NCBI GenBank assembly: GCA_031551405.1
Contig: JAVBNQ010000005.1
Location: 33,743 to 97,742, forward strand
Source of the DNA: a bacterium
Lineage (GTDB): Bacteria > RUG730
Reading direction: 5' to 3'
Length of the DNA: 64,000 nucleotides
In this document: piece after piece, positions 2,727 through 59,431 of the stretch
Layout of the letters: each line of letters opens with the position of its first letter
Numbering within the stretch: position 1 is the first letter of the stretch
The notes under the pieces: model-generated
Seen by the model: the letters and a program-made list of their open reading frames with translations, nothing else
Databases searched by the model: none
What the model was told of the DNA's origin: nothing
Made by a program: the position numbers and the translations under genes

Positions 2727-2792
2727 AATAAAAAAACCTCTAATAATTTTTATATTTTGGATACTATTATTTTTTAAAATTCAAGTCAAGTT

Positions 2793-5231: not shown

Positions 5232-5241
5232 ATTGTTTCGC

Positions 5242-10787: not shown

Positions 10788-10818
10788 TAATATGCTCCGG
10801 ATTTATGAATTTTCTTTT

Positions 10819-18010: not shown

Positions 18011-18070
18011 TTTCTTTTTCGTCAGTTTTTGGTTTGGACGAGCAAAAAAAATGGACAAAGCCGGCATCTA
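18011..18070. repeat. Intergenic repeat element, partial copy C, between the two Pmp-like genes
   Basis: cgtcagtttttggtttggacgagcaaaaaaaatggacaaagccggcatcta aligns with the 3' portion of copy B. Confidence 0.5.
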
Positions 18071-18304
18071 CAAGTTGGGAAAATAACACAGACGTCATTA
18101 GCAAAAAAACAAAAATGTGAAAATTTTGTCATTGCATGTAACACAACGCCCGGAAACCAATCGCACCTTGAGCGAAACACAAGATCTGAAACTGAGATGC
18201 GTCGCTAGTTAAGAATGACGAAAGTGTACTCGTGATGGCTATTAATAAAACTTGGAATTATATTTACTACAACTCCACAACACTTTTTTTGTCTATTATT
18301 TTTC

Positions 18305-26530: not shown

Positions 26531-29500
26531 ATGTTTATAAAAAATTTAAAAATTACAAAATGTTTGGCGTCATTCTTGGTTGTAACGACTTTTACATGTT
26601 TTATCTTGAATGACTACACCTATGCCCAAACTCCTGCAAAAATATTGCCTTCTATCAGCGAATTACGTAAAGCAAGGGGATATGACAAAACTTTTACAAA
26701 CATCGGTTTTAGAGAAGAAATTGCGATTAATCAAAGCGCTGATTTATACGCTAAAAAAATGAACACAAATTATGCTAATCAGCAAACAAAAATTGAAAAC
26801 AATTTAAAAGCAAAAAAAGAATCTGCTTGGGCAACTGCCGAGAAAAAAACAAATGAAATAAAACAAACTGCCACATTAAATAGAGAACAATTAAATGTAA
26901 ACTATGCAAAAAATCTTGCAGATTACAAATCAACATATTCTGTTCAAAAAGCTAAACTTGCAAGCGATTTTGACATAAAAGTTGCACAAGTAGACAAAAA
27001 TTTGGCGAGGCTTAGAGACGTATCCGCAATAGCTGCAAAAAAAATTGATACTCAGTCCGGTATTAACAAAATAGGCAGCGTAGTAGCCTCTGGTATTATG
27101 AAACCTGTACAAGGGATTATGAGCGGTCTTACATCTGTAGTCGGTTTCTTTTCAGGAAAAGATAATAACCCTCTTACAAAAATAAATGACAAAATACAAA
27201 ACATTGATAAAGATTTGGCTGATTTAAAAAATTCTAAAAACGACAATATGGCTTCTATTCAAAAAAATACTGCTGATCAAATAAAAAATTTAGAGAAAAA
27301 AAAGAAAGATCTGCTTGAAGCTAAAAGTGCATCACTTACAAATATGGACAAAAGAAATGACGAAACTTTGGCAAATATGGAGCTTTCATTCAAAAATGAA
27401 ATAGAAGCCGTAAATAATCGTGAAAATTCTTACATAGCGAGTTTGGTGAATAGTACAACTGATGAACTTGCAAAACTAGACGGTGAAATAAAATCCAGAC
27501 TTGAAGATTTGTACACACTTACAAACTCAGAGCTGGAAAATTATTTATTTGGAGACGATGGCTTATTTAAGAAAGCTTATGAATACGATGACAAAACAGC
27601 CTTACGAAATTTAAAGTCTGATCAAGATAATTCCAATCGTGAAATTCAAACTGACGAAAAAAGCGGTGGTTATATTGGAAATTTAGCTAACTATATGGGA
27701 GTGGAAGAGCAAAAAAGGGCATTTGCAAGTAATCAATACTTAGAAAAAGCAGAAAAACTGCTTTTGTCAGGAGCTAGTGATGGTACGAGAAGAGCCGGTG
27801 AATTTGCTGCAGCAGCCGGTGTAGTTAGCAAAGATGCCCAAGTTTTGATGCCACGCGATTTTTCTGATGCAAGTTTGGCTCGAAGCGGCGCTATAGAGCT
27901 TAATATGGATCAAGGCGAAGCCGCAGGCACCGTCCGAGATAACAAAGTAGCAAATATAGACGCATCATTCTTAAAATCCCAGCAAGAACTTGCCGACTAT
28001 TCTGACAGCATAGTCAAATATTCCGACGAAGTTACCGGTTTTCTAGAGGATACAATCAACAATTTTGCTGATAATTCGAAAAATGAGATGAATGATTTTA
28101 CCAACAAAACGGTCAAAAAGAATGATGAAATCAATCAAAAAGAAATACAAGCGCTTTTGGCATTTGTAAAAGAACTGCAACAATATATGGATATGGTCTG
28201 GCCGGAGTCACAATCTGCAGGCTATGAGCGAGCTACTGAAGCATTAAAAGAAGCCGCTGAATTATACTTGAACGCGTCAATTGATACCCTTGCTATTATA
28301 CTTGCTGTAGTCTTAGGAATTGTCGGTGGATTAGTTGCGACTATTATAGGTGCAATATTTCTTATAACTACAGGAATTCCTATGATATTTTCCGGTATTT
28401 TAACTCCCTGCGGAATTGTACAGGTAGTGGCCGCTGTAGCTAGCTTAATAATCGGTATTACCGGAGTAGCTCTTGGTATTTGGGGAATTATATCAGCCAT
28501 AAGTGAACGTGAACAATTAAAAACTGCGCTCGAAATAGCAAGTAATAATGTCAAGGTTTTAAACGATTTGTTGCCGGATCCATCAAAAAAAGACTGGCCT
28601 GAGAACACACCTAGTGAGTACAAAGTTTTCATGGATGCAGAAAAAAATTATAATTCAGCTATGGGCCAATTTAAAGTAATGTTTTTCAGACGTTTCGGCA
28701 TAGAAGGCCTAAAAAAAGTCAGAAACAAAATAAACCAAATAAACAGGTTATTAGGAAAAAAAGGCATCTCTGGACTGACTCATGACGAATTATTAAAATT
28801 ACAAGAACTACTCTTTTTCTTCAAACCTGCTTCTAACGATAAACTCCTAAAAAGATCGATGGAAGGACTGAAAAATACTTTTAAATCATATCAAGAGGCT
28901 TTAGAAAACTTCAAAAAATCCACAAAGACTGTAACATACACATTAAAAGAGCTCAAAGATGGAAGCATTGTAGAAACTACTTACACAAAAACTATTTGGG
29001 AGGCTTATCAAGACAAACAATTTTGGGGAGTTGTCGCCAGCGAATTAGATATGGCTCTAAACAATGCATACGTATTTGATATCGACGCAAATGGAAATGT
29101 AATAAAAGTAGATAGATCTGATGGATCAACTTACACTGAAGAATATAAGGATCCAGAAACCGGAGAATGGAAAACAGTTACTAAGAAGGGTTGGAGTGGC
29201 TTTGCAAATAAAGCATCTCAATCTGGAGATCGTTTTTTTTCTGCTATAAATAATGGCTTCACTAAGTTTATAGATGCAACAGATGCATTCTTCTCTGGAG
29301 TAATATCTGGTGTAATATACGGGGTTACTTTTGGTCACGTCAAGGTAGATAAATTTCCTACTTGGGTCAAGGGGATAACGACATTTATTCCAAATTTCTT
29401 CAAAGCTATAGTAGATATGACTTTTATGGGATATAACCTCACCTTGCATCTTGCAAAAGGGTTATCTCAGAATGGTGTTTTGAAAGGTTTACAAGATTTT

Positions 29501-32500
29501 GCTCTCGGAATGGCCTCTTTCCCTCTTGGCATTATTGAAAATGCGATTGGTATGAAACAGGGAACATTCTTAGATCTATTCAAAGGAAAAACTCACAGTG
29601 CAAAAGAAATTTGGGGCGAAGGAGAATACTGGAATCCCGGAGCAGCTGCAGGAACTTTAGGTTTCACTATTGTTATGATGATGGGGAGCCCTTCCGGAGC
29701 TTCTTCTATAAAAGCTTTTGTTAGTAATATTAAATCAGCACTTTCGTCAATATGGAACGCTATTAAGTATGTTGCAGTGAATGGAATATGGGCCGGATTA
29801 AAAGCTTCTTTCAAAGTTGTCGGATCTGCTCTAGGAAAAATAATAAATTGGACGAAATCCCAATTCAATTTCAAAACCGTACTAGGGAATGGTTTTAAAG
29901 CCGGAGTTAGTGCAGTTTTACATAACGTTTTATCAGGTGTTAAAATTGGATTAGGGGGTTTAGGAATCGCTGCTGTAGCTGTCTTAGGCGCAGCAGGGAG
30001 TATAGCAGGTAGCATAGTATTTGGCTTAGGAAAGAGTTTACTTACAGCGACTAAAGCTCTTGCCACTACTGCCTCTAAATATCTTAAAAAATTCTATAAA
30101 GAATCTTCTATAAAAAGTCTATTTAAATGGGCTTCTAAACAAGTTACTCCTAGAAAAAGTGCAGGAGCATTGCTTGCAGCCATATTATTAACCCCTGTTT
30201 TAATCGTATCTCACGTATTAGGTATTACACAAGCCATAAAACAGCTTCATACAGGTTTTGTAGGTTTAAGAAAAGAATATAAAGCAATGCAAAAGGTATA
30301 CAATTCTACCGGTTCTTATGTACAAACACGAAATGGAATGCCTGTAAACTTAAGGACTCAATTCATTCAAAATACTATCTCTTATGGACTGCAAGTTCCT
30401 CAAGTTTTAATTAACACTGTTATGTCTGTAGCGTTAGCTCCCCTTCTTATCACTAGCCCCCTTCTTTTTATAGGAGTTAAAATAGGTCACGTTTTCTGGT
30501 CGGAAGTTATCTTAGGGCAGAGAAAATTACGGGCGATGCAAAAAGAGCAGCAAAAAGAGCAATCTCGTGGAGCCATCAACTCTCAAAAAACCCAAATTGA
30601 ATCCGAAACCAATGCTCAAGCAGTGCAAGCTTCAGCAAGAAATCTTCGTGATCACGCGAAAGCTTTCGGTATAGAAGTTTTCGACAAAACAGGAAAAAGC
30701 TTAGGAGTAGTTAGCTATAAAGTCTTCATGGAAAAAATGATTAGTGGAGAGATATCCAGCTTTGCAGTAAATCAAGGAGGCTCTAAAAACGCAATATCGC
30801 TTGGTATCGGAGCACGCGAAGCCTTGACTAGAGATTATTTGGCATCACGAGATAATGCCAGTTTAACAAGACTACTTGCCCGTAATAACGGTAATAATAA
30901 ACTAGAGGCTTTGGTCGCGGCAGAGCGAGTTCAACGAAGCACCATAATCTTAAGAGAATATAACGCACAAAGACAAAAATTAACAGGTCAGTCAGCTATT
31001 AATTTTCTAGAACAAATGCTTAATCAAAATAAGTTACGAAGCAAGGTGGCCACTTCTGCACAAAAAGCCTTTTTAAAAATGCAAAATGCAGCTATAAAAA
31101 CAGAGCTCGCAAATCTACATGCTCAAGCACTTGCTGCAAGAATAGAATTCTTATTTAGTCAATCTAAGCTTGATCCTAAGATTGTTGAGCTACTTGATTC
31201 TAATTTAGGAATATTAGATTTCTCAAAAATAAAAGCCGGTGGTCTAACACGTAATGCTGCAGAAACACTTGTAAGACAAATGGGAGATATTTTGGGAGTA
31301 GTTTCAAAAAAATATCAAGAGAGCTGTTCAACAGGAAACAAACAAATCATAAAAGACTCAAGCTCTGTAGTCTCAGCAAGATTTAAAGAAATAGTAAACA
31401 GCGAAAAATTTCAAGAAATTTTAAAGATTGCAAGCCTAGCAGAGAGGCAACAAAAAATAATGGATTATATGAAAGAGTTGAAAGCAGTTGAAAGCGCTAC
31501 TCCTCCAACTGCTTTGGAAAGACTAGTAATTGATAGGATGACGCAAGTTCTTAGAGATAATCCTTCAATTACTCCTAAACAGCTAGCAAAAATGGAAGTC
31601 CAACTGCAAAAAGAAACTGTTTTAGCTCTAGAAACCGGAGCTCTTGTTTATAACGGGTTTACAAGTTATAACAACATTGCTGACGGTATAAAACAACTAG
31701 GCGTGCGACCTGATTTAGAATTAAATAACCAAAGAAAAGCAGTGAAAGCTACGACGGCATTAAATGAAATTGAAATTACAGCTCATCATCAGACTGTTGT
31801 TAGCCAACTTAACGAAATCATAGCAATGAAACCTGAACTCTTCAGCAAGAACCAAGGTCCCGCAGAAGGAAGAATTGAGGCACGAAGAAAGGCTAATTCA
31901 GATTTTATAGCTTCAGTACGCGAAAAATATAAAAATGACCCAATTGGCAAAATACTTGCAAAAAGACTTGAGTTTTTATTGGAAATCAACGTTTACAACA
32001 ACCAAGGAATTTCTGCAAAGGATATGAAGAATTTCACAAGTCTCCTCAAAGAAGAAGTTACTTTCGCCTTAAAATCCGGCGATATAGTTCCTGCTAATGG
32101 GCGTTTTATCTCGCAAACTCAAATGGAGGCATACCTAAAAACTTTTGCAAGCGAAGCCGAACTTATGCGGCATGCACAAGAAACCTTCAAAGTTCAAAAA
32201 CAAAAAGAGGCTTTAGATAAAAAATATGAGGGGAAACAGTTTGAAAAATATTCTAGAAGCAAAAGAAACGCAGCCCAAGATTTAGTCAAAGAATGTCTTG
32301 TTATAGGAAATATGGGAGAAAAAGAAAGACAAACTGCTATTGAAGCTCTTCAAAAACAAATATCTGATATAAAAATTGAAAGAGACACCGAAAGTCCAAG
32401 CATGAGAAAATTATTAAATCGACAAGTTGATGCATTAGAAATGTTGGTAAGCTCAATAAAAAACAACGATGTTGCGAGGATAAAAGAGGCTGTAACAGCT

Positions 32501-35500
32501 TATTTTTCAAAGGGAGGAGCGAGCAGTAGCGTGACAGCTGAAGCTTTCGTAGCAAGTATAAAATCTGTTATAACCGTTACAGAAGCATTTGCTGAGAGAG
32601 TAGATCAACTAAGTCGAATTTCGAAGGATCACGAAATTCATAAGGCTGATGGAAAATTAAGCATGCAAGACTTCCAAAAAAGAGAGGTCGGTGCAGAAAC
32701 CAAAGCAACATTAGTAATCTTAAAGGCTCAACTGGACGCATTAAAAGACACCTCAACAAGGCCAATTAGTTTAGAAACTTATAAAGAATATGCTGCTTTA
32801 AGAGAAAAAATTGAAAAAAGCGATGCTTACAAAAATGCAACCACTGAACAAAGAACAGCTGCGACCACTGCAACAACACCACATGAAATACTGGCGGCCG
32901 CACTCAATCCACTAGAGGCTGTGACATATAATAAACTTATGGAACAATTTAAAGGCTTAGACTTAAAAAGTGAGCAAAGCTTTAGGGACAGCTTTAACCA
33001 AGCTATACGAGAGAAAATTAATTTGTTTGTAGCGGAAGCTGGATCTTCGATGCCAGTCGCAACAATAGTAGATTACTTACGAGGTAATCGCTCTCGTATC
33101 CCAACAGATCTAATGGCTAGTTTAGAGCAACAAATTGTTAATAAACTTAAAGGACGCGAGGCAGTAACAGCTAACGATCTTACTAGAGATCAGGCTTTAC
33201 TTGGAACTCTGCCTCAGTCTTCAATTAGAGAAGTGTTAGCTGCTCGTCCTGACTTGCATAGGCTGATACTTCAAAAAGAAATATCTTATTTGCAAGCAAA
33301 AGAAACTGTTCCTGCTGCTGTCCAAGAAGCGAATAGGCAAGTAAACGAAACCCTAAGTCTTACTGATGCAGCTGCTCTTGTCAAACTAAAAGAAACAATC
33401 GCAACAATTAGCGATCCGACTTTAAAAAAACAAATAACCGCACTTATTAAAGGCAAAGAATTAGGAAAAATTACTTTTGCGAGATTGAGCGAGTTAATCG
33501 AACAAACAAAATCAAGTCCGGAAGCCACTCAAGCGTTAAACTTGATTGTTTCCAGACGAATGAATCAGCTACAAACGTATAAGAACGCAGCCGGAAGTGC
33601 CCAAAAATCTGCCTCTAATGCTCTTATTGCCGAATATAAAAAACTAGAAGACTACATTATGAAAGGTGTAGAAAAAGCATCCGCTGGATATTTGGAAATT
33701 TTAAATAGAGAGCATCTACCTCTAATGGAAAAAATGTATAAAATAATGGAAGCAGCCGGTATTCCAAAAGCAGAGATTTCTACTTTTGATCTATCAACTG
33801 GCAAAATAGGAGATAAAACTTTTTATCAAAAAGTCCAGGAACTTGCCAGTGCAAAAAAATTAACTTCAGCCGAATATATTCAAAGAGAATTATTCGGAGA
33901 AAACCATCAACTAACACATCTTCAAGCTGACGCACTCAGAGTCGTAGGGTTAAAACTGATAGAAGGACATAACAAAATAGGTGACGGAACCATAACAGCC
34001 AGGACAGCTGCACTCACTGACCCTAACTTCAATTTTACACAAAAACAAATCTTGATGATGGCAGCCAATGACCAAGGAATGATTGCTGCTCTTGGAATGG
34101 GAGGAGGAAAAACCAGAGTTTATCCTACTGTAATAGGCTCTATGATGCAAAAAGGAATAGGCGGAGGTATTGGTGAAATTCTGGTTTCTTCAAAACAAGA
34201 AATCGCTAATATGTTAGGCAATAAAGATTACATGGAAACCTTTTATGGTGTTAAAATGCTTGATGGAACCAAGTTGCATGCAGAAAATAAATTAGGAGAA
34301 ACACTCGCCAGCCACAAAAGAGACGGTATAAAAGTCATAGTTGTCTTTGACTTAGAGACAAGAGGACATTTGTCTCACGAGATCAGAACTAATAAAAGCC
34401 TGCAAATCCTAGACAAAATAGATATTTTGGCTATTGACGAAGCTGATGCCTTATCTCTAAAACAACAATCTTTTATTAATGCAGAAAGGCTGCCAGCAAC
34501 CGATCTGATTAAAAACCAAGTAGCGAAGATTCTAGAAACTTACGAAAAATTGAAAGGTGAAGGTGCAGAAAAATTTGATGCTAAAAAAGGCGGATTTGCT
34601 GACAAAACCTTTTTGGATGCAATGTTGGCCGAGCTAAAAACCAACGCTGAATTCCAAAAAGATCAAAGCTCTTACCTTAAAAAATCACTTTTTAGTTTAA
34701 GTGACAAAGAATGGACCGGACAAACCAGCGCAATGATAACCCAAGTTTTGAGAGGTCGTGCCGAGGTGCTTTCCGGGGAAACAAAAGGTGGATTCAAAGT
34801 AGACACTGTTGGTGGTATTCAAGTCGGAGTTCAAGATGGAAACAACTACAACTCAGTTGCCGTTCAAATTATAGATGCATTCCAAAAAAATGCACCACAA
34901 GGAGTTACTTTCTCAATCGAAAGATTTAAAACAACGACAGGAGCGAGTGTATCAGAATTTGCTGCTACGGTTTCAAAAACTACGGTTGAATCTGCCGCGC
35001 AAGAAATTCTTACCAGGGCACCCGGAGTTAGATTGCACGTTTTCGGAGGGTCAGGAACAACAGGCGGCGCTAAACGTATCAGCGAAGCTGTCACTGCTCC
35101 GGTAGCAGAAATCTCCGAAGCCTCTTTTGCTAACTATGCGTTCAATACGCAAGTACAAAAACCCGGACAGCGAACAACAGATGTGGTGGCTGCATTTGCC
35201 GGGAAAGCCTTGGAGGGTAAATGGGGACGACTTATCATTCAATCGCAAGAGAATTTAGCAGAAAACCTCTTGGCTACAATAGAAAAAGTAGCAGGCCCGG
35301 AAGCTGCAGCAGCATTTAAAAATGCGGCTAGCACTAGCGGCAAAGTTGAACGAATCTCAGATGTACAATTCGCGATAGAAAAATTAGACTCAGCCTTTGT
35401 CGATCCGGTTTTCATAAAAGGACAAGGAGGTGGATTCATAAGTCTCAACCAAGCTATTACAGACGGGTTAGTAAGATCTAATGGGAAAAAGTTTTTTGAA

Positions 35501-38500
35501 ACAGTGTCTGGCAGAGAAGTCAAAGTAAGTTTAGGTGATATTTTAGCGTCTCCAACAGCAATGAGAGAATTGAATATCCCAGAAAATCATAGAGCAACTT
35601 TACAAAAAATCATAGTAATAGATCATTACACTAATCCTGAAAGCGTGAGTGGTCTAGCAAAAAATACTTCAGCAAATGGCAATATTGTCTTTTCTACTGC
35701 AAAAGCAGGCAGAGGCATGGATTTTAGAGGAAAAATGCAATTACTAGTCACGGATGTTGATTCGCTTGCAAAAAATGATTTCCTACAAATATCCGGACGT
35801 GTTGGTCGCGGTGAGTCCAGAGATGTATTCCATAGAACAGTTCTAGTCAATCCTACTCAACTAAAATCTACTTTTACGGAACAAATTGAAATTTTGCAAC
35901 AAAAAAAAGAATTCATGCAAAGCAGTACTCTAGGGAAAGAATTTATCGAACAAGGAGGCGGCCTTAAAGCTCCTCCTGCAGATAGGCAAATTACTCAATC
36001 AGAACAAGCATTCAGGGCAGAGTGGACGGAATTACAAAGTAACTTAAAAAGTTTAAAAATATATGAGAAACAGCTTGATAAAGGATCATTTACGCAAGCG
36101 TCATCCGCAGAAATGATCCGAGCCAGCACAATAATACAAGGAGAATTTAAATCCAACGGAGCAGCTCTTTATCAAATAGGCGAAGGCGTCAGGTCAGCGA
36201 TCCTAAAAATTCCTCTTGAAAGGATGAAAGCCAAAGCTGAAGCTATGGGTAATACTCATGACGCAGCTTTGATCCAACGCATAATAGATGAAATGATCAG
36301 AACAAACAAAGGAGCTACGGCAGATGCTTTGATCTTGCAAGAGTCCGGATGGAAAAATCCAAAAGAAGTTTTTGAAAAAATGATGAAAGCAAATTACGAG
36401 GCTGCCATTCAAATTTATAAAATGTTAGATGCAGTAAGAATCACAGATCCAAAAAGCATGATGGAAAAAGTAGCTTCACCTATTACAAGAAAAGTAGCAA
36501 TAGGTGAATTCAATGTTGGGTTACAAGATCCAACATTATTAAGAGAAGTTAGAACTCGTGTTTTGGATTTAGAACAAGGGAAAATGGAAGTCCAAGCAAT
36601 AGGCAAAAGAGATTGGTATGAAACCAGAGCTAAAGCAACTGAAAAAGCTAAATCCGGACAACTGACTACTTTATCAGAAATTAATTCAATGGATAACCCT
36701 CAAATAAGTCGTCAAGTCTTGGAAACCGTAACTTATGTAGCGAAAGATTTGAATCCTCAACGGAAAACTACGGCATCAGACTCATACGCTCCAAAACAAA
36801 CCGTAAGAATAGCCAACCAGGCTCTTACCGGCGTAAAAGGGACAGAAGCCGTAAGGGTAAATACCAGTAATGCAGGACAGCTGGTATCGTCTTTGGAGCA
36901 TTACAAGACAAAAGGCGATAGAATAGGTGCCATTGTTTTGACTAATAGACAACTCATAGCATTACAGCAAGATCCGATTGCTTATAAAAGATTCCAAGCC
37001 GAAATTGTAGCTACTACAGATTGGAAACATGGAGTATTCGCAACAGGACAAGCTAAAATTTTAATAGCAGACAGTGATCAAGATATAACCAATGGAAGAG
37101 CCAAGACGCTAGAACAAGCACTTGGACAAGCACAAGCTCTTAAACCACCTATTGTAACAAATGCCACTCAAATAGTTCTAGGCAGCTCATCTCAAGATAA
37201 GAAAAAAGACAAAGATTTACAAAAACTTTTTGAAATTCAAACAAGAGATTTGCGAGCAGGTATTGACCCTAAGCTTTGGGATGATTTGGATACTAATCTA
37301 GAAATCGCTATTGATAAACAACGATTTGATGCAATGCCAGAAAAGGCGAGACAAGAATTTATAGCACAATTGGGACGAGAAGCGCAATTACGAAGTGAAC
37401 GCGCTAGGGACGCTGGTAAAGATACCGGTCAAGTAACCGCAGTTTTGAGAGAGGAGGTAGTGGATACGAGTCTTAAGGGAAATCAAATCGCAACTTCCGT
37501 GCTCAGTAAGCTCTCGACACAGCCTACTGTTAGATCCGAAGCTCTTGCGCTGTTAATAGAAGCTCAAGAATCAGAAATAGCCAGACTAGAAAAAGAAAAG
37601 GGAGCAGCATCAGACCTAGAAAGCTTAGGCCTTGAAGCTTTATTTAATGAAGAAGCGCTTGTTACTAAAAAAGATCTTGAAGCCAAAATACAAGACCTTA
37701 AAGTCGAAAGACAAAAACTACTTGCCCTAGAAACTGAGGTAAGAATATTCGAAACTATGGATAAAATAATAGACACAAAAACAAACAAACAAGAAGCTTT
37801 GGCTTTAACAAAAAAAGCTCAGACTTTACTTCCTCAATTGGCAGCACAAATGGATAGATTAAATGACGAAGCACAAGCTCTTCAGACGCAAGTTCAAGTT
37901 ATAGGCCAAGAACTTTTAGATCAAGGGAACTTGGCTGTTCTCGCTAATATTGTAAGAGGAGACCAAGCGCCTCAAATCATACAACAATATACAACCCTTA
38001 GAGACGATAAAAATGAAGCTTTAAAAGATAAATTGCTTGCAATCGCTAGAACTGCAGCCCCTACTGAACAATCTAAAGTTATGACGCATTCAACACTACT
38101 CATGACTACTGATGCTACTGTTAATGCCGGATATGCAAAAATAGAAGAACAATACAGAAAAGACGTATTCCCAGGCGTTTATCAGCCTACTGTAAATGCT
38201 GATGCTAATGCTACGACTTCACCTCAACAGCCCGTTGTAGTTCAAAATGCCAGATTAGACTTGGCTCAACCTGCGATACTCAAAGATGCAAAAGCAAAAC
38301 TTAAAAATGAAGCGGAAGGAAACAAATCTACCTCTAGCCAAGGACCATCAACTGCTGCTAAAACACAATACACTTCTCTCGTGACCATGGAAGTACGCGA
38401 CAAACTTTTAACAGAAACAGGAGTCAGTCAGCTAGAAATCGTTATAAGTACAGAAGTCCAAGACGCTGCTGAAAAAGCTCTAAGAGATGGCGTACAAAAA

Positions 38501-40768
38501 GCTAATGAAGAAACTCGACGCTATGTTACTTCATCTCCAAGACAAAGTTTACCAAAATCTCTGGTTGTAAAAAATTCTAAAGGAAAAATCGTAGATATTT
38601 ACGAATTAAGGAATGGTCAACTAGAAAGCAGAAACGCAGGAATCCAAAGTAGGCTTACTCGAGGCAAAGAAGACACTAGTGATCAAATGCAACAGCTGAT
38701 GGCTATGTTCGCGCAACAAGGTATGGCGCCTCCTGCTGGCTTGGGAGCTAACGGCGGAGTCGGTGAAATAAAAATTAAATCTTTTACATTTGGCAAAAAA
38801 TCCAAGCAACTAGAACAATTAATGAGTGAGCTCAGTAAACAGAAAAAAGATGGCTCAGTAACTATCGATTTAAGCGAAGTTGCTGACGAAAATGTAGAAG
38901 AATTCGTAAAAAGCGTTTATTCTGCGATATTCGAAGATCAAAACTTGCCAAGAAACGTTGTCTTCAAAAAAGGCAGTAAATATTTTGGAGCAACTGATGC
39001 TGATTTGAGAAATTACCTCGAAACCTGGAGTGGAGCTGAAAGAACTTTAGCTTTAGCGGACTCTGCATCATTATCATTTAGCAAGCAAAATCCGGACGTT
39101 CTTTTGCGAGAAGACACACTCAAGCCTAATTTAACTGATTCATATTTTGCAGAAAAACCTTTTAGACAAGAGGCTGATCAGGTCGCTCTTGCCAAAACAT
39201 ACGAAGGACGTGAATATTTCGACGGTAAAATAGAAATTGAAGGCGACAATGGTCCGACGACTAAAGCTTTATTCAAAAAAGACGTGACCGCAAACAAAGT
39301 TATAATAACTATTGATCCTGAAAACTTGAGATATTTTGGCGCTGAATATAATGCCCTCGAAAAATTCATAAAAGGTTTGCGGCAGATCGAGCTCGAATTC
39401 AAAGATTTAGGCAAAGATCTCGAGATAGTTATTCCAACGACAACTGACTCTTCTTTAACGGAAACTAGAGCAAATCTTGTAACAGCCTTAAAAACTTTTG
39501 TAGACGAATATAAAACTGATGCCAGAGAATTCAGGCTTCTAAATTCTGCAGGCAACTTACTTTTCACTAATAAGCCTGACAACTATGAAAAAACCACGTC
39601 TTTAAGCGTTGGTAAAAATGTTTTGGCTGTGCCGGAAACTGTTTTTTCTACTGACGCTGCTTTCAAAGCTTGGCTGCAAAACGCTCTCAAAACCGATGAA
39701 ATGAGAGCTCTCGACGAAAAAGGCGAAGGCGTAACTTTAGGCTTGGGCTCTGTTGAAAAGTTAACCGACGAAACTATACAAATGATTACAGAAGTTATTG
39801 CGAGGTCTTTCCCTGGAGAAAATGTAACTTTAGTCAATAAATTAGGGCAAGTAATAATTGACCCGGCTTCTCACCATGCCGTAACAAGTATTGCTGCACA
39901 ATCTTTAAGAATAACGAATGTACGATTGAATAAGCAAATTTTAAATATGCTCGACCAAAATAATATTGCTAATTTTACAAAAATCGAAATCTCTGAAGAA
40001 CTCGCAAATTCTCCTAGCGACATTTTACTTCTAACAAATTTTTTAACTCAAAAGGGTTTTAGCGGCGATGTAGTAGTAAAGACAAATTCCGGCGAAGTTA
40101 AAATTTGGAGAGAAGCATTGTTCGAAGCCGGCGCTATTGTAAAAGACGTAGGAAGCTTGGAAGACTTGAATAAGTTCCTCGCAACTTTGGACGAACAAGC
40201 TGCCAGCGTAGATTACACTAATTATTCTATAGTTTTGAATCTAAAATTCAGAGATAAATTTACTGACTGGAGCAAATTAAATGCTTTGATAAAAAGCGGC
40301 AAATTGAAAGATTTAACCATAACTCAACGTGGCCAAATCTTAGCGACTAATAACGCCAAAGTACAACAGTTCGTTAAACATTACGAAATCATCAGTCGTT
40401 CTCACGATATAAAACTAGAAACTTTGCGTAGCTACCAAGGCGAACTTCAACCTGTAAATGCTTCAGCTTTACAAAAAATTGATTTTGGAAAAATCGGTGG
40501 AGCAAGTACAACAGTTCAGCCAAACTTTAGTTTACCTGTTATCGCAGGAAGCGTTGTTGCTTCTTTCCAGGGAGCTGACGCATCTTTTGCTAAATATGTC
40601 ACTTACATGGGCAAATCTGACGTAACTCAAACTGCCAATTTTGCGGCGGAATTCAAAAAGAGTGTTCGCAGTTTGGGAGTTGAAGCCGGTCTAATCAGGC
40701 GAACTTCCGACGCTTTCCCTCGAACTACTGATACAGCGAACATGAGGCATTTGGATAGCGCTGCATAA
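26531..40768 (+). CDS. Giant protein (4,745 aa): signal peptide, coiled-coil region, hydrophobic/TM clusters, SF2 SecA/DEAD-like ATPase motifs, long C-terminal region
   Basis: Single uninterrupted ORF of 14,238 nt in an AT-rich genome; AGGGGG RBS; N-terminal hydrophobic signal-like segment; Walker A GMGGGKT (34094..34114), Walker B LAIDEAD (34427..34447), AGRGMD (35705..35722), QISGRVGRG (35786..35812); terminator hairpin downstream. Confidence 0.8.
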   Translation: MFIKNLKITKCLASFLVVTTFTCFILNDYTYAQTPAKILPSISELRKARGYDKTFTNIGFREEIAINQSADLYAKKMNTNYANQQTKIENNLKAKKESAWATAEKKTNEIKQTATLNREQLNVNYAKNLADYKSTYSVQKAKLASDFDIKVAQVDKNLARLRDVSAIAAKKIDTQSGINKIGSVVASGIMKPVQGIMSGLTSVVGFFSGKDNNPLTKINDKIQNIDKDLADLKNSKNDNMASIQKNTADQIKNLEKKKKDLLEAKSASLTNMDKRNDETLANMELSFKNEIEAVNNRENSYIASLVNSTTDELAKLDGEIKSRLEDLYTLTNSELENYLFGDDGLFKKAYEYDDKTALRNLKSDQDNSNREIQTDEKSGGYIGNLANYMGVEEQKRAFASNQYLEKAEKLLLSGASDGTRRAGEFAAAAGVVSKDAQVLMPRDFSDASLARSGAIELNMDQGEAAGTVRDNKVANIDASFLKSQQELADYSDSIVKYSDEVTGFLEDTINNFADNSKNEMNDFTNKTVKKNDEINQKEIQALLAFVKELQQYMDMVWPESQSAGYERATEALKEAAELYLNASIDTLAIILAVVLGIVGGLVATIIGAIFLITTGIPMIFSGILTPCGIVQVVAAVASLIIGITGVALGIWGIISAISEREQLKTALEIASNNVKVLNDLLPDPSKKDWPENTPSEYKVFMDAEKNYNSAMGQFKVMFFRRFGIEGLKKVRNKINQINRLLGKKGISGLTHDELLKLQELLFFFKPASNDKLLKRSMEGLKNTFKSYQEALENFKKSTKTVTYTLKELKDGSIVETTYTKTIWEAYQDKQFWGVVASELDMALNNAYVFDIDANGNVIKVDRSDGSTYTEEYKDPETGEWKTVTKKGWSGFANKASQSGDRFFSAINNGFTKFIDATDAFFSGVISGVIYGVTFGHVKVDKFPTWVKGITTFIPNFFKAIVDMTFMGYNLTLHLAKGLSQNGVLKGLQDFALGMASFPLGIIENAIGMKQGTFLDLFKGKTHSAKEIWGEGEYWNPGAAAGTLGFTIVMMMGSPSGASSIKAFVSNIKSALSSIWNAIKYVAVNGIWAGLKASFKVVGSALGKIINWTKSQFNFKTVLGNGFKAGVSAVLHNVLSGVKIGLGGLGIAAVAVLGAAGSIAGSIVFGLGKSLLTATKALATTASKYLKKFYKESSIKSLFKWASKQVTPRKSAGALLAAILLTPVLIVSHVLGITQAIKQLHTGFVGLRKEYKAMQKVYNSTGSYVQTRNGMPVNLRTQFIQNTISYGLQVPQVLINTVMSVALAPLLITSPLLFIGVKIGHVFWSEVILGQRKLRAMQKEQQKEQSRGAINSQKTQIESETNAQAVQASARNLRDHAKAFGIEVFDKTGKSLGVVSYKVFMEKMISGEISSFAVNQGGSKNAISLGIGAREALTRDYLASRDNASLTRLLARNNGNNKLEALVAAERVQRSTIILREYNAQRQKLTGQSAINFLEQMLNQNKLRSKVATSAQKAFLKMQNAAIKTELANLHAQALAARIEFLFSQSKLDPKIVELLDSNLGILDFSKIKAGGLTRNAAETLVRQMGDILGVVSKKYQESCSTGNKQIIKDSSSVVSARFKEIVNSEKFQEILKIASLAERQQKIMDYMKELKAVESATPPTALERLVIDRMTQVLRDNPSITPKQLAKMEVQLQKETVLALETGALVYNGFTSYNNIADGIKQLGVRPDLELNNQRKAVKATTALNEIEITAHHQTVVSQLNEIIAMKPELFSKNQGPAEGRIEARRKANSDFIASVREKYKNDPIGKILAKRLEFLLEINVYNNQGISAKDMKNFTSLLKEEVTFALKSGDIVPANGRFISQTQMEAYLKTFASEAELMRHAQETFKVQKQKEALDKKYEGKQFEKYSRSKRNAAQDLVKECLVIGNMGEKERQTAIEALQKQISDIKIERDTESPSMRKLLNRQVDALEMLVSSIKNNDVARIKEAVTAYFSKGGASSSVTAEAFVASIKSVITVTEAFAERVDQLSRISKDHEIHKADGKLSMQDFQKREVGAETKATLVILKAQLDALKDTSTRPISLETYKEYAALREKIEKSDAYKNATTEQRTAATTATTPHEILAAALNPLEAVTYNKLMEQFKGLDLKSEQSFRDSFNQAIREKINLFVAEAGSSMPVATIVDYLRGNRSRIPTDLMASLEQQIVNKLKGREAVTANDLTRDQALLGTLPQSSIREVLAARPDLHRLILQKEISYLQAKETVPAAVQEANRQVNETLSLTDAAALVKLKETIATISDPTLKKQITALIKGKELGKITFARLSELIEQTKSSPEATQALNLIVSRRMNQLQTYKNAAGSAQKSASNALIAEYKKLEDYIMKGVEKASAGYLEILNREHLPLMEKMYKIMEAAGIPKAEISTFDLSTGKIGDKTFYQKVQELASAKKLTSAEYIQRELFGENHQLTHLQADALRVVGLKLIEGHNKIGDGTITARTAALTDPNFNFTQKQILMMAANDQGMIAALGMGGGKTRVYPTVIGSMMQKGIGGGIGEILVSSKQEIANMLGNKDYMETFYGVKMLDGTKLHAENKLGETLASHKRDGIKVIVVFDLETRGHLSHEIRTNKSLQILDKIDILAIDEADALSLKQQSFINAERLPATDLIKNQVAKILETYEKLKGEGAEKFDAKKGGFADKTFLDAMLAELKTNAEFQKDQSSYLKKSLFSLSDKEWTGQTSAMITQVLRGRAEVLSGETKGGFKVDTVGGIQVGVQDGNNYNSVAVQIIDAFQKNAPQGVTFSIERFKTTTGASVSEFAATVSKTTVESAAQEILTRAPGVRLHVFGGSGTTGGAKRISEAVTAPVAEISEASFANYAFNTQVQKPGQRTTDVVAAFAGKALEGKWGRLIIQSQENLAENLLATIEKVAGPEAAAAFKNAASTSGKVERISDVQFAIEKLDSAFVDPVFIKGQGGGFISLNQAITDGLVRSNGKKFFETVSGREVKVSLGDILASPTAMRELNIPENHRATLQKIIVIDHYTNPESVSGLAKNTSANGNIVFSTAKAGRGMDFRGKMQLLVTDVDSLAKNDFLQISGRVGRGESRDVFHRTVLVNPTQLKSTFTEQIEILQQKKEFMQSSTLGKEFIEQGGGLKAPPADRQITQSEQAFRAEWTELQSNLKSLKIYEKQLDKGSFTQASSAEMIRASTIIQGEFKSNGAALYQIGEGVRSAILKIPLERMKAKAEAMGNTHDAALIQRIIDEMIRTNKGATADALILQESGWKNPKEVFEKMMKANYEAAIQIYKMLDAVRITDPKSMMEKVASPITRKVAIGEFNVGLQDPTLLREVRTRVLDLEQGKMEVQAIGKRDWYETRAKATEKAKSGQLTTLSEINSMDNPQISRQVLETVTYVAKDLNPQRKTTASDSYAPKQTVRIANQALTGVKGTEAVRVNTSNAGQLVSSLEHYKTKGDRIGAIVLTNRQLIALQQDPIAYKRFQAEIVATTDWKHGVFATGQAKILIADSDQDITNGRAKTLEQALGQAQALKPPIVTNATQIVLGSSSQDKKKDKDLQKLFEIQTRDLRAGIDPKLWDDLDTNLEIAIDKQRFDAMPEKARQEFIAQLGREAQLRSERARDAGKDTGQVTAVLREEVVDTSLKGNQIATSVLSKLSTQPTVRSEALALLIEAQESEIARLEKEKGAASDLESLGLEALFNEEALVTKKDLEAKIQDLKVERQKLLALETEVRIFETMDKIIDTKTNKQEALALTKKAQTLLPQLAAQMDRLNDEAQALQTQVQVIGQELLDQGNLAVLANIVRGDQAPQIIQQYTTLRDDKNEALKDKLLAIARTAAPTEQSKVMTHSTLLMTTDATVNAGYAKIEEQYRKDVFPGVYQPTVNADANATTSPQQPVVVQNARLDLAQPAILKDAKAKLKNEAEGNKSTSSQGPSTAAKTQYTSLVTMEVRDKLLTETGVSQLEIVISTEVQDAAEKALRDGVQKANEETRRYVTSSPRQSLPKSLVVKNSKGKIVDIYELRNGQLESRNAGIQSRLTRGKEDTSDQMQQLMAMFAQQGMAPPAGLGANGGVGEIKIKSFTFGKKSKQLEQLMSELSKQKKDGSVTIDLSEVADENVEEFVKSVYSAIFEDQNLPRNVVFKKGSKYFGATDADLRNYLETWSGAERTLALADSASLSFSKQNPDVLLREDTLKPNLTDSYFAEKPFRQEADQVALAKTYEGREYFDGKIEIEGDNGPTTKALFKKDVTANKVIITIDPENLRYFGAEYNALEKFIKGLRQIELEFKDLGKDLEIVIPTTTDSSLTETRANLVTALKTFVDEYKTDAREFRLLNSAGNLLFTNKPDNYEKTTSLSVGKNVLAVPETVFSTDAAFKAWLQNALKTDEMRALDEKGEGVTLGLGSVEKLTDETIQMITEVIARSFPGENVTLVNKLGQVIIDPASHHAVTSIAAQSLRITNVRLNKQILNMLDQNNIANFTKIEISEELANSPSDILLLTNFLTQKGFSGDVVVKTNSGEVKIWREALFEAGAIVKDVGSLEDLNKFLATLDEQAASVDYTNYSIVLNLKFRDKFTDWSKLNALIKSGKLKDLTITQRGQILATNNAKVQQFVKHYEIISRSHDIKLETLRSYQGELQPVNASALQKIDFGKIGGASTTVQPNFSLPVIAGSVVASFQGADASFAKYVTYMGKSDVTQTANFAAEFKKSVRSLGVEAGLIRRTSDAFPRTTDTANMRHLDSAA

Positions 40769-45030: not shown

Positions 45031-45257
45031 TTTTTTACTCCTCCGATATAAAAAAGTATTATTTTTTGTTTTATTGATAAAAAATTTAGAAATTTATATT
45101 TTCGCTTTTTCTCTAAAAATTGCTTTGCAAATTTTACTCAAAACCCCACCATGAAGGAAAGTGGAAAAATTTTTGAAAAACTGTTTGAGCCCAATTTTTG
45201 TGACGAGTTTTGTCCTTTGCAGGACAAGCATCAGCCTCCGCTTAGCGAAGATTTCAA

Positions 45258-45366
45258 GTAAAACTTTATTTCTCTGCTATTATTAGCCGTATGCAATACT
45301 TTTTGAAAATTTTTACCTATATCCGGAATGTTTGGAGCGTCCTTTTCTTTTGGTTCATTTTCTTTT
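45258..45366. repeat. Intergenic repeat element, copy A, between grpE and dnaK
   Basis: ~110 nt roughly 85% identical by eye to 57872..57978 (shared core ...aatgtttggRgcgtcSttttcttttggttcattttcttt). Confidence 0.6.
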
Positions 45367-45539
45367 TTGTGCAATTTCAAAAAAAATTTAAAAACTAACC
45401 TAAACTTTCGTTTTTTGAAATCCGCTGACTTTGCCAAGAATGAAAATTTTAAAAAATTTCTTTTTCTGGATTTTACTTTACTTTTACAAATTTTTTAAAA
45501 AAAATTCTCTCATTTTCGCAAGATTTTTTTATAAATTTT

Positions 45540-57338: not shown

Positions 57339-57719
57339 ATGGCTTTATATTCAGATATAGTGATGGATCACTTTGAGAATCCGAGGAACGTCGGAATAAT
57401 AGAAAATGCAGATGGAGTTGGAGAAGTCGGAAATACTGCTTGTGGCGACATAATGACTTTCTACATCAAAGTCAAAGACAATATCGTCACCGACATAAAA
57501 TTTAAAACTTTTGGGTGTGGAGCTGCGATTGCAGTCTCATCGATGGTTTCAGAAATGGCAAAAAATAAAACTATCGAGGAAGTCCTTGAAATAACAAACA
57601 AAAAAGTTGCAGAAATGCTCGGCGGACTTCCATCTCACAAAATGCACTGTTCAAATCTTGGAGCTGACGCTCTCAAAAAAGCAATTCAGAATTATCAAGA
57701 AAAACAGCAAAAAAAATAA
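57339..57719 (+). CDS. Fe-S cluster assembly scaffold, IscU/NifU N-terminal domain type
   Basis: 126 aa; three conserved Cys in NTACGD, FGCGAA and HCSNLG contexts. Confidence 0.85.
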   Translation: MALYSDIVMDHFENPRNVGIIENADGVGEVGNTACGDIMTFYIKVKDNIVTDIKFKTFGCGAAIAVSSMVSEMAKNKTIEEVLEITNKKVAEMLGGLPSHKMHCSNLGADALKKAIQNYQEKQQKK

Positions 57720-57738
57720 GTCTTGTAAAAAACTGCTT

Positions 57739-57823
57739 GGAGAGATCGCATAGTGGTTTAGTGCACACGCCTGGAAAGCGTGAAACGGGCAACCGTTCGG
57801 GGGTTCGAATCCCCCTCTCTCCG
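57739..57823 (+). tRNA. tRNA-Ser (anticodon GGA)
   Basis: Hand-folded cloverleaf: acceptor GGAGAGA/TCTCTCC, 3-bp D-stem, anticodon stem CACGC/GCGTG with loop CTGGAAA, long variable arm with ACGG/CCGT stem, T-arm GGGGG-TTCGAAT-CCCCC; 85 nt; CCA not encoded. Confidence 0.85.
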
Positions 57824-57871
57824 GTCATTGCATAACGGGCAATAATTCGTGGCTCCGCATCAAAGTTTTAG

Positions 57872-58015
57872 AGTAAAACTTTTTGACTCTGCTAATATTA
57901 GCTGTGCGCAGCATTTTTTGAAAATTTTCCCTATCTCAGAAATGTTTGGGGCGTCGTTTTCTTTTGGTTCATTTTCTTTCTGGACGAGCAAAAAAAATGA
58001 ACAAGGCTCGCAATC
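57872..58015. repeat. Intergenic repeat element, copy B, downstream of tRNA-Ser and upstream of hydG
   Basis: 5' ~107 nt match copy A (45258..45366); 3' part (...ggacgagcaaaaaaaatgRacaaRgc...) matches copy C (18011..18070). Confidence 0.6.
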
Positions 58016-58069
58016 TCGTTTCTAAGATATCTAAACTCTAGATTTCATCCAAATTTAAGGATCACCACA

Positions 58070-59431
58070 ATGAAATACATCGACGAACAAAAAATCAATG
58101 AACTTCTTACAAAAAAATCAACTTTAAATCTCGATTCAATTCTCGACAAAACAAAAAAACTTGAACGTCTAAGTTTAGAAGAAACGGCATTTTTATTGAA
58201 TTGCGAAGATAGCTTTAGCCTACAAAAAATTTTTGATGCTGCCAAATTCGTAAAAAACGAAATCTATGGAAAACGCGTCGTGATGTTTACGCCGCTTTAC
58301 GTCAGTAATTTCTGCGTAAACAATTGTAAATATTGCTCTTTCCGTGTTGATAATCAGCAAATTATCCGCAAGGCTTTGTCTCCAGAGGAAATTCGCGAGC
58401 AAGTTTTGTGGCTTCTAAAGCGTGGCCACAAACGCATTCTTCTCGTAGCTGGCGAAGCCGCAAAGCCAGGAGTAAAATTGATTGATTACTATGTGTCTTG
58501 TATCGAGGCGATTTATTCAGTGGAATACAATGGACACTCGATACGACGAGTAAACATAAATTGCGCTCCTCTTGAAGTTGAGGATTTCAAAAAACTGAAA
58601 GCAGCAAAAATTGGAACGTATCAAATTTTTCAGGAAACATATCACGATGAAACATACAAAAAAATGCATCCTTCCGGACCAAAAAACGATGGAGACAACA
58701 GAATTTCTGCAATTGATCGGGCTTTTCAGGCTGGAATTGACGACGTAGGATTCGGCGTTTTGTACGGACTTTACGACTACAAATTCGAAACTTTGGCAAT
58801 GCTCGCGCACGTCGAAGCTCTAGAAAAAAAATATGGTGTCGGACCACACACGATTTCTGTACCAAGACTTGAGCCGGCAATAGGCGTGGATTTTACGAAC
58901 GAAAAGTTTCATTTTGTAAAAGACGAGGAATTCGAAAAAATCGTCGCTGTTTTGAGGCTCGCTGTGCCATACACCGGCTTAATCTTGTCAACTAGAGAAA
59001 CTGCTGCAATGCGCGATAAACTTTTAAGCCTTGGGATTTCACAAATGAGTGCAGAATCCAGCACTGCGCCAGGAGGTTATTCCGACGAGAACGAAAATTC
59101 ACAGTTTTGCGTGAGTGATCACCGAAATCTCGAGGAAATGATTGAGACGATTTTGAATTTTGGATTCATCCCGAGCTTTTGCACGGCTTGCTACAGAAGC
59201 AATCGAACTGGTAAAAATTTTATGGATCTCGCAAAACCAGGAAAAATCAAAGGCAAATGTAGTCTAAATTCGTTAATTACTTTGAAGGAATATTTGGATG
59301 ATTTCGCGAATGAAAATTTGAAAAAACGCGGCTATGAATTAATCAAAAAAGAAATGGAAAATTTAACTTTAGACGATAAAAAAGCATTAGAAAAAATTTT
59401 TGAAACAGACAAAAAAGATAAATTTGTATAA
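58070..59431 (+). CDS. hydG: [FeFe]-hydrogenase maturase HydG (radical SAM; ThiH-like)
   Basis: N-terminal radical SAM CVNNCKYC (Cx3Cx2C) plus C-terminal CTAC-x22-C (Cx2Cx22C), the second cluster motif that distinguishes HydG from ThiH. Confidence 0.8.
   Translation: MKYIDEQKINELLTKKSTLNLDSILDKTKKLERLSLEETAFLLNCEDSFSLQKIFDAAKFVKNEIYGKRVVMFTPLYVSNFCVNNCKYCSFRVDNQQIIRKALSPEEIREQVLWLLKRGHKRILLVAGEAAKPGVKLIDYYVSCIEAIYSVEYNGHSIRRVNINCAPLEVEDFKKLKAAKIGTYQIFQETYHDETYKKMHPSGPKNDGDNRISAIDRAFQAGIDDVGFGVLYGLYDYKFETLAMLAHVEALEKKYGVGPHTISVPRLEPAIGVDFTNEKFHFVKDEEFEKIVAVLRLAVPYTGLILSTRETAAMRDKLLSLGISQMSAESSTAPGGYSDENENSQFCVSDHRNLEEMIETILNFGFIPSFCTACYRSNRTGKNFMDLAKPGKIKGKCSLNSLITLKEYLDDFANENLKKRGYELIKKEMENLTLDDKKALEKIFETDKKDKFV

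Follow-up and report, generated by a model that had tools for sequence, protein, structure and literature searches.

An intergenic repeat of a RUG730 bacterium as a candidate structured RNA with a widespread pseudoknot module

INTRODUCTION

Among the described systems that come close to the element treated here, an intergenic repeat in a bacterium of the GTDB lineage RUG730, is the TwoAYGGAY motif (Rfam RF01731). The motif (Weinberg et al. 2010, PMC2864571) is without an established function and was rated 'probably an RNA, not cis-regulatory'; its closing stems can reach a length of 24 bp (supplement to Weinberg et al. 2010), and a role as a small RNA (sRNA) that sequesters CsrA has been proposed (Gardner and Eldai 2015, PMC4333381). 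Our element lies in positions 33,743 to 97,742 of contig JAVBNQ010000005.1 (assembly GCA_031551405.1), a stretch of 64,000 nucleotides that we call the window, and is present there in three copies, A, B and C. It resembles TwoAYGGAY in being multi-copy, intergenic and, to all appearances, not cis-regulatory; it differs in having no AYGGAY hairpins, and the RF01731 model excludes the predicted pseudoknot that makes up the conserved 3' part of our element.

In topology, this pseudoknot corresponds to the SAM-II, SAM-V and preQ1-II aptamers and to the telomerase RNA pseudoknot, all of which have a first stem (S1), a second stem (S2) with an A-rich 3' strand, a U-rich loop 1 that runs parallel to that strand, and a short loop 3. 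A further likeness is to the helices formed by an element for nuclear expression (ENE) and an A-rich tract, as in MALAT1, MEN-beta, PAN of Kaposi's sarcoma-associated herpesvirus (KSHV) and the ENEs of plant and fungal transposons, where two U-rich strands likewise clamp one A-rich strand. In both, the clamp would lie close to where the conserved RNA ends on its 3' side, with C+•G-C amid U•A-U, and protection of the 3' end may be common to the two. In the ENE, however, the clamp on a 3'-terminal A-rich tract or poly(A) is made by a stem with a U-rich internal loop, whereas our module would be a bacterial pseudoknot that has no poly(A) and is not always terminal.

Type III toxin-antitoxin RNAs (ToxI, CptI) are, like the proposed module, bacterial, and form small pseudoknots with triplex cores. 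The antitoxin RNAs consist of tandem repeats of 34-45 nt immediately upstream of the toxin gene; the copies in the window are single and dispersed, with no tandem array at their sites, and no neighbouring gene is conserved over 159 loci. Repetitive extragenic palindromic (REP) elements, bacterial interspersed mosaic elements (BIMEs) and miniature inverted-repeat transposable elements (MITEs) are likewise intergenic, multi-copy and hairpin-forming.

A COVARYING PSEUDOKNOT MODULE

Our preferred reading, to which we give a probability of roughly 0.6, is that copy B is a structured non-coding RNA of ~150 nt on the + strand, a member of a widespread class that is undescribed as far as we have found, and that copies A and C are decayed paralogues. 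B is intact apart from one core substitution; its transcription we infer. The class would be defined by an H-type pseudoknot on its 3' side. In the order found across members, this module consists of the 5' strand of S1 (YGYC), UUUCUUU(U), the S2 5' arm (..UUUCUUU), a GRCR-AGC loop and the S2 3' arm (AAAGAAA..), which for annotation can be written as the signature YGYC - U3-4 C Un - 5' arm - GRCR AGC - A3 G An - 3' arm. S1 would be a helix of 4-5 bp between YGYC and GRCR, and S2 a U/A-rich helix of 12-14 bp; the U-rich loop 1 (UUUCUUU...) would run in parallel along the purine strand, within the major groove of S2, and form ~7-9 U•A-U and C+•G-C triples. Both the length of S2 and the series of 7-10 potential consecutive triples exceed what is known from the SAM-II, SAM-V, preQ1-II and telomerase pseudoknots.

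The searches that supplied most members used exact patterns in which the triplex core is fixed, and the statistics therefore use positions that the patterns leave free, together with ~10 copies that no pattern selected. From the listed stretches of the Joint Genome Institute (JGI) metagenomes, 115 distinct modules with flanks were taken. At the six distal positions of S2, which are pattern-free, 5.33 of 6 are paired in these modules, against 3.07 with shuffled partners (maximum 3.41), and 56 different 5' arms are represented. On a 105-row alignment, 98.4% of the S2 cells are paired, with double changes at 10 of the 13 pairs, and S1, which is not part of our covariance model of the module, has double changes at 4 of its 5 pairs. 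None of 500 shuffles reaches the values of the whole structure on this alignment, and sliding the partners lowers pairing from 92% to 45-65%. Family-wide, the S1 strand sorts by loop type (TGCC/GGCA, TGTC/GACA, CGCC/GGCG, CGTC/GACG), and the copies that no pattern selected add the combinations GUGC/GCAC and GGCG/CGCC. S1 and S2 both covary strongly.

The folding strand can be read as well. Among the distal S2 pairs, G·U-type pairs number 46 and A·C-type pairs 6, and the model gives the + strand about twice the score of the - strand; it is therefore the + strand that folds, as expected for a transcript.

The case for a triple helix comes from loop 1, where TTTCTTT is found in 101 of the 115 independent modules; two control windows contain it in 2 and 1 of 115. 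The general sequence is AAA-G-A(n) for the purine strand, U(n)-C-UUU for U-tract 2, with which it forms Watson-Crick pairs, and U(3-4)-C-U(n) for loop 1. Loop 1 therefore mirrors the purine strand in parallel orientation, being neither its reverse complement nor a direct copy of U-tract 2; such a mirror match is what parallel Hoogsteen U•A-U and C+•G-C triples require. In an H-type pseudoknot, loop 1 exits S1 at the S1/S2 junction and follows the deep groove of S2, running 5'-to-3' as the S2 3' strand does. The two strands also agree in length: the number of U that follow the C of loop 1 matches the number of A that follow the G of the purine strand in 30 of 34 modules (3-3), 48 of 50 (4-4) and 4 of 4 (5-5), with a Spearman rho of 0.96, and the U-run before the C stays at 3-4. 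Variant cores that no pattern selected mirror each other as well, namely UUCUUUCUU/AAGAAAGAA, UUUUCUUUC/AAAAGAAAG, UUCUUU/AAGAAA, UUUCUU/AAAGAA and UUUUCUU/AAAAGAA.

RECURRENCE ACROSS PHYLA

Copies A and B have only 23 exact bases in common, and this exact 23-mer is found at 37 loci in unrelated organisms (one genome each from 185,579 species). At least 33 of the 37 loci match B over 41-58 nt, with an identity of 81-95% (blastn), and in the genome loci the similarity to B breaks off sharply after the S2 3' arm. Three loci (L010, L023 and L025; fetched loci carry L numbers throughout) have little or no match outside the 23-mer and no full match to the model, L025 reaching 25.4 bits. Going by the taxa in the record titles, the hosts of the module belong to at least seven phyla: Bacteroidota, Calditrichota, Kryptoniota, Desulfobacterota, Gammaproteobacteria, Fusobacteriota and Saganbacteria. 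Those at the 37 loci include many from Bacteroidota, among them Kordia, Aquimarina, Mesonia, Ulvibacterium, Saprospiraceae, Mucilaginibacter, Fulvivirga and Bacteroidales; others are Caldithrix, Kryptoniota, Desulfobacterota, Kangiella, Fusobacterium perfoetens and a WOR-1 (Saganbacteria) genome.

Sequence variants were found with BLAST in plasmids and secondary chromosomes, in Ilyobacter polytropus (six places on one replicon) and in Pseudoalteromonas; the window element itself, used as a query against plasmids, gave no match. A degenerate 22-mer that covers the triplex core and the loop occurs in at least 120 stretches of the JGI metagenomes. In viral contigs the module is rare (0 and 3 matches in two scans, 3 with the degenerate 22-mer), and a search for an E. 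coli counterpart found none. No family of Rfam 15 covers the module. When the window and 14 genome, 2 plasmid and 20 metagenome loci were searched against Rfam at gathering and permissive thresholds, only tRNA, Flavo-1 and the adjoining TwoAYGGAY were returned. The open-access literature that we searched, by sequence string and by concept, contained no description of the module; its absence from there and from Rfam 15 does not prove that the motif has never been described.

A small non-coding RNA family was one of the candidates offered in the initial annotation of this DNA, which was made from the letters of the window. The covarying, cross-phylum pseudoknot supports that candidate, and the family proves broader than the annotation could see.

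THE ELEMENT IN THE WINDOW

The initial annotation described a repeat at three loci, and blastn, a count of its core and the covariance model all place it there, at the positions claimed or a few bases from them. Copies A (45236-45365) and B (57853-57979) are 81.5% identical over 130 nt (blastn, E 9e-30), which bears out the similarity claimed; the 39-nt core given in the annotation has exactly two sites in the window, 45327-45365 and 57941-57979, and none in 100 shuffles. Copies B (57958-58007) and C (18011-18061) are 80% identical over 51 nt (blastn), and the 3' end that they were said to share is real, at ~50 nt rather than ~60. A 27-mer found by exact pattern is common to C (18035-18061) and B (57981-58007) and does not occur in shuffles.

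Over the whole window, with filters off, the covariance model gives 66.7 bits for B (E 4e-14), 36.7 bits for A (E 5e-7, with S2 mismatches marked) and 22.6 bits for C (E 1e-3), where the E-values are rough and the seed of the model included B and neither A nor C. No fourth copy is found in the 64 kb, the next-best match scoring 13.1 bits. As the annotation had it, all three copies are intergenic and lie on the + strand. The coordinates of the copies and of their parts are collected in Table 1.

Table 1. Positions of the element, its copies and its parts in the window
Feature	Position	Strand	Remarks
Copy B, near-intact element	57852..58002	+	~151 nt; lineage-specific 5' part, then conserved 3' module (predicted pseudoknot)
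5' part of B	57852..57951	+	~100 nt, AT-rich; common to copy A only
Module of B	57952..58002	+	51 nt: CGUC, spacer G, UUUUCUUUU, GG, GUUCAUUUUCUUU, loop CUGGACGAGC, AAAAAAAAUGAAC
S1 5' strand, CGUC	57952..57955	+	predicted to pair with GACG 57983-57986
U-tract 1 (loop 1), UUUUCUUUU	57957..57965	+	proposed Hoogsteen third strand
S2 5' arm (U-tract 2), GUUCAUUUUCUUU	57967..57979	+	predicted 13-bp helix with 57990-58002, 12 of 13 paired
Loop, CUGGACGAGC	57980..57989	+	contains the S1 3' strand GACG (57983-57986), then conserved AGC
S2 3' arm (purine strand), AAAAAAAAUGAAC	57990..58002	+	cross-genome conservation ends right after it
Copy A	45235..45394	+	grpE-dnaK spacer, antisense to the operon
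Copy C	18011..18056	+	module only, between two Pmp/autotransporter genes
Copy C, U-tract 1	18011-18019	+	
Copy C, S2 5' arm	18020-18035	+	
Copy C, loop GGACGAGC	18036-18043	+	
Copy C, S2 3' arm	18044-18056	+	
tRNA-Ser(GGA)	57738..57824	+	~27-28 nt upstream of B, same strand; context only

In copy B, the S2 core helix, S1 and AGC are all present, and S1 and S2 are predicted to form an H-type pseudoknot. The second G of the GG after U-tract 1 is the first base of the S2 5' arm, and S2 contains one C-A mismatch (C57976/A57993). When loop 1 of B, UUUUCUUUU, is set against the purine strand, AAAAAAAA, the U/A register fits and the C faces A, not G. Copies A and C hold these features in part. In A, the intact portion comprises the 5' part, the 5' strand of S1, the two U-tracts and the 5' arm of S2 (45338-45365 being the module portion); the loop and the 3' arm of S2 that follow (45366-45394) have degenerated, and S1 can no longer pair. 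Copy C is without the 5' part and the S1 5' strand, and its S2 5' arm has a 2-nt bulge and one mismatch. All three copies have a run of eight A in the purine strand (57990-57997, 45379-45386 and 18044-18051), where the family has AAAGAAAA; this shared run may be a lineage-specific variant, perhaps with an A+·C wobble, or inherited damage.

The flanking genes named in the initial annotation are confirmed by Pfam and tRNA annotation. DnaK and GrpE, both on the - strand, a NifU_N protein and a HydG-type radical SAM protein are the Pfam neighbours, together with a Chlam_PMP protein and an autotransporter beta-domain protein at copy C; hydG starts 67 nt downstream of copy B. The annotation also placed a hairpin with a T-run inside copy B. 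At 57901-57919 we find a stem of only 4 bp, which fails a terminator scan and is not kept in copy A.

5' DOMAINS

The sequence that precedes the module varies by lineage: it is a TwoAYGGAY domain in Gammaproteobacteria, a three-helix domain in Bacteroidota and, in the genome of the window, an AT-rich part that has no established structure. In the Bacteroidota type, the preceding ~120 nt form a well-supported three-helix domain with 55 predicted pairs, 25 of them with compensatory changes; it has a hairpin loop GAAGCCUUGGA and two CCUUGGA motifs, the second beside the closing stem. A second type, found in L007 and its relatives, is a very stable rod (z -5.9 for L007). In Kangiella and Pseudoalteromonas, the module starts directly where the RF01731 match stops, and it lies in the 3' flank of all five Psychromonas sequences that we took from part of the published TwoAYGGAY alignment (PMC2864571). 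Most module loci in other phyla have unrelated 5' domains with no Rfam hit.

For the window, RF01731 gives no match at the gathering score (43 bits), nor at E up to 10 over 57700-58100; the positive controls L012 and L041 matched at 44.5 and 56.7 bits. By sequence and fold, AYGGAY does not occur in the 5' part of B, and none of its hairpin loops has a GGA. Copy A holds CCGGAAU and UUGGAG, without supported hairpins. By eye, GCUCC (57852-57856) and GGGGC (57948-57952) could close the 5' part of B as a helix. No homologue of this part was found among the ~170 fetched loci.

FUNCTION AND WEIGHT OF THE RNA READING

If B is such an RNA, duplication of a B-type unit would have left A and C behind as decayed paralogues, and B may be made from the transcript of tRNA-Ser, which is a possible co-transcription partner in the RUG730 genome and not a feature of the family. 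As a compact module, the triplex pseudoknot would either withstand 3'-to-5' exonucleases (a 'cap') or serve as a handle for protein binding, and in either case would stabilise a lineage-specific 5' effector domain. We propose this stabilising role, as exonuclease resistance or as a generic protein handle for 5' effector domains, only tentatively. It is suggested because the purine strand at the 3' boundary would be buried between two U strands, because conservation ends at the purine strand in most lineages, and because the 5' domains are interchangeable and linked to no gene. In its broadest form, the module could be a bacterial counterpart of the MALAT1/PAN 3' triple helix, a portable nuclease-resistant cap or universal protein handle on unrelated sRNA domains in at least seven phyla, a possibility that we think less likely than not.

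Several observations weigh against the RNA reading or parts of it. The fold of the 5' part is no better than that of shuffles (z -0.33 for B and -0.68 for A) and a two-sequence consensus is weak, so that structure in this part is not established. The purine strand of all three window copies has A for G where both U-tracts keep C, giving a C-A mismatch; with it the C+•G-C triple is lost, and B too may therefore be impaired or may represent a variant of its lineage. With two of its three window copies clearly decayed, the element has the look of a repeat rather than that of an essential gene. A site scan found no promoter-like or terminator-like site flanking B, including the gap between tRNA-Ser and B. 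In a high-GC subgroup further conserved hairpins follow S2, and the Psychromonas copies, in the part of the alignment used, likewise carry a small hairpin directly after S2; the module is thus not always 3'-terminal, which weakens the idea of a cap. The major-groove triple helix inside the H-type pseudoknot is probable, as judged from symmetry in the sequence, and the selection of most members by their triplex core, described above, counts here too.

Should the reading hold, an AT-rich repeat would locally represent an RNA tertiary motif that is widely conserved and has up to 7-10 consecutive triples, and long U•A-U triple helices, seen so far mainly in eukaryotic and viral RNAs and in short riboswitch cores, would reach free-standing bacterial RNAs. 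The orphan TwoAYGGAY RNAs would gain a missing 3' half and be tied to RNAs of Bacteroidota, Fusobacteriota and other phyla; the natural 50-nt module would be a candidate RNA-stabilising part, and its signature would give a concrete means of annotating such RNAs. If the cap idea were right as well, bacteria would have a general RNA-stability device that works without a terminator hairpin and is so far unrecognised, with the candidate CsrA sponge TwoAYGGAY among its domains.

GENOMIC CONTEXT AND ALTERNATIVE EXPLANATIONS

The context of the module bears on most of the other ways to explain it. The one that survives best takes the element for a mobile or selfish DNA repeat, resembling a MITE, a REP or an IS200/IS605 end, whose fold as single-stranded DNA or RNA aids its own spread and whose copies are insertions of different age. 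We think this unlikely, and it keeps some weight because copies cluster, decayed copies occur and assemblies break in the module. Three copies lie in the 64 kb of the window, five loci (L041, L080, L084, L105 and L124) hold two or three copies each, five copies occur in the part of the Psychromonas alignment mentioned above, and decayed and partial copies are found. Two Logan assemblies of the window organism break within the module, at ~57964, and the long closing stems given for TwoAYGGAY would suit such a repeat. The spacers that hold the element are divergent, as at promoters, in 6 of 69 cases, against 24 convergent. REP elements show a similar bias against divergent spacers and for gene 3' ends, and can stabilise upstream mRNA.

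The proteins nearby do not fit this explanation. No recurrent protein family was found within 3-3.5 kb of the module in 34 and then 159 loci, and no transposase, TnpB, RAYT, adjacent reverse transcriptase or other common protein is shared within 3.5 kb over the 159. The omega-RNAs of TnpB/IscB, the bridge RNA of IS110 and the non-coding RNAs of retrons or of defence-associated reverse transcriptases (DRTs), considered because conservation stops abruptly at the 3' edge, were rejected on the same absence of a shared protein. By eye, the borders of A and B show no terminal inverted repeats or target-site duplications, no dedicated scan having been run. Copy number is low, where tens to hundreds would be expected of REP-type repeats, and in two Kordia species the element is held at the same site upstream of deoC, which looks like inheritance rather than insertion. 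Conservation across phyla and covariation of a pseudoknot with a triplex set the module apart from REP, BIME and MITE sequences, and the 46:6 ratio of G·U over A·C, together with covarying, lineage-specific long-range helices, points to selection on a transcript. The REP/MITE-like element proposed in the initial annotation finds no support in the low copy number, the retained Kordia position or the borders.

A conformational switch, in which one purine strand is contested by U-tracts 1 and 2 or a GA-rich stretch further downstream takes U-tract 1 as its partner, is improbable. The two U-tracts are nearly identical, and in a subgroup the sequence aGAAGRA after S2 can extend S2 by Watson-Crick pairing with U-tract 1. 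In asymmetric cases, however, U-tract 1 mirrors the purine strand, so that antiparallel replacement of U-tract 2 by U-tract 1 is impossible, and the downstream GA stretch is limited to the subgroup and does not occur in the window copies. At nine loci (L048, L063, L078, L082, L097, L100, L114, L122 and L129), the aGAAGRA... sequence can pair with U-tract 1 in a hairpin of at least 20 bp, and this extended S2 hairpin is a possible alternative conformation to the triplex.

Regulation of the downstream gene in cis, by a leader or by a riboswitch with a fold like those of SAM-II, SAM-V or preQ1-II, with hydG as the gene at B, is very improbable and largely refuted by genomic context. These three riboswitches do belong to the same fold class, that of H-type pseudoknots whose U-rich loop 1 occupies the major groove; the S2 3' arm contains AUG in its commonest variant, and B lies shortly before hydG. 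Unlike those riboswitches, which stand upstream of methionine/SAM or queuosine genes, the module is linked to no class of genes and has no Rfam riboswitch match even at E up to 10. Downstream genes are diverse and unrelated to one another, and lie on the opposite strand in 79 of 132 loci (79 against 53); with the scarcity of divergent spacers, this speaks for a unit that stands free or sits at gene 3' ends, and against a 5' regulator. An intrinsic terminator follows S2 in 1 of 123 cases. Within the window, A and C are antisense to the adjoining genes. The nearest relatives of HydG are at most 69% identical and come from metagenome-assembled genomes that are, by source name, of Elusimicrobiota, Saganbacteria and Margulisiibacteriota; their hydG loci are not syntenic and lack the module, and a regulator specific to hydG was rejected on this ground. 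A leader peptide or the sequestration of a start codon was rejected too, as the reading frames after the AUG meet stop codons within 5-10 codons and are not conserved, and some variants have no AUG.

A function as double-stranded DNA, whether as a palindromic operator bound by a dimeric regulator or as a recombination or attachment site by a tRNA gene, would suit the 13-bp inverted repeat with its spacer of 8-10 nt and the placement of B by tRNA-Ser and of A in the spacer of a heat-shock operon, but is for practical purposes ruled out by the covariation pattern: the 56 distal arms are complementary yet variable where an operator would keep its sequence, S1 and a mirror-matched loop 1 would be meaningless for duplex DNA, the element is strongly strand-asymmetric, the repeat contains no tRNA sequence, linkage to tRNA is absent in 34 loci, and viral contigs hold the few matches given above. 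The attachment-site remnants suggested in the initial annotation fall with it. A tRNA is present within the fetched flank (up to 8 kb, mostly 8 kb) of 2 of the 34 related loci and adjacent in neither, and at copy B the repeat begins ~28 nt past tRNA-Ser and contains no tRNA 3' end, which excludes the attachment site of an integrative element. Linkage to phages, looked for in the viral contigs, was negative as well. An integron attC site and a CIRCE operator were rejected by eye, since the boxes conserved in these sites are missing and the arms are free to vary.

FURTHER OBSERVATIONS

Some neighbouring features at the related loci can be added. In L035, a Flavo-1 RNA (Rfam, 64.8 bits) lies at 5752-5838 on the - strand, ~190 nt downstream of the Mesonia element and on the opposite strand, and is unrelated to it. 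L041, from plasmid pNC201 of Pseudoalteromonas sp. NC201, has three modules within 800 nt (2425-2478 on the - strand, 3000-3053 on the + strand and 3140-3193 on the - strand); they are interspersed with further hairpins that have AUGGAU loops, in a stretch of ~3.6 kb (1-3613) with no open reading frame (ORF) above 152 aa. In L014, a unit of ~320 nt is repeated over 4591-5480. The module comes first in the unit (complete at 5144-5199, S2 and loop only at 4591-4632) and is followed by a second polypyrimidine/polypurine hairpin, whose - strand at 5254-5306 is a module with the variant core AAAAGAAAG, and then by a possible small ORF (MSKNFSAPLKQI...). In L040, from pILYOP01 of Ilyobacter polytropus, the locus tags skip ILYOP_RS10975 at the spacer that holds the module (2640-3260); the RefSeq record may carry an RNA or pseudogene annotation there that the PLSDB table omits.

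In assemblies of the window organism, the hydG contigs of the two independent Logan assemblies (SRR23967709 and SRR23967707, loci L001 and L002) begin within the module, and a Logan contig with dnaK (L170) stops at ~45179, 57 nt ahead of copy A. These breaks at or near the module suggest that further copies in the genome break the assembly graph. Just 5' of copy A, at 45205-45225 in the grpE-dnaK spacer, is a perfect small hairpin, UUUUGUCCUUUGCAGGACAAG, which has no counterpart at copy B. Elsewhere in the window, a single ORF of 4745 aa (26531-40768, + strand) has no Pfam entry in the precomputed table for the Logan contig. Around copy C, a segmental duplication with a spacing of ~7486 nt (10802-11101 against 18288-18587 at 90%, and 11908-12024 against 19393-19509 at 83%) spans the autotransporter beta-domain ends of the two Pmp genes. 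The second of these genes is apparently in pieces, with ORFs at 18305-19393, 19372-22227, 22530-22952 and 22882-23874, which may reflect frameshifts or a pseudogene.

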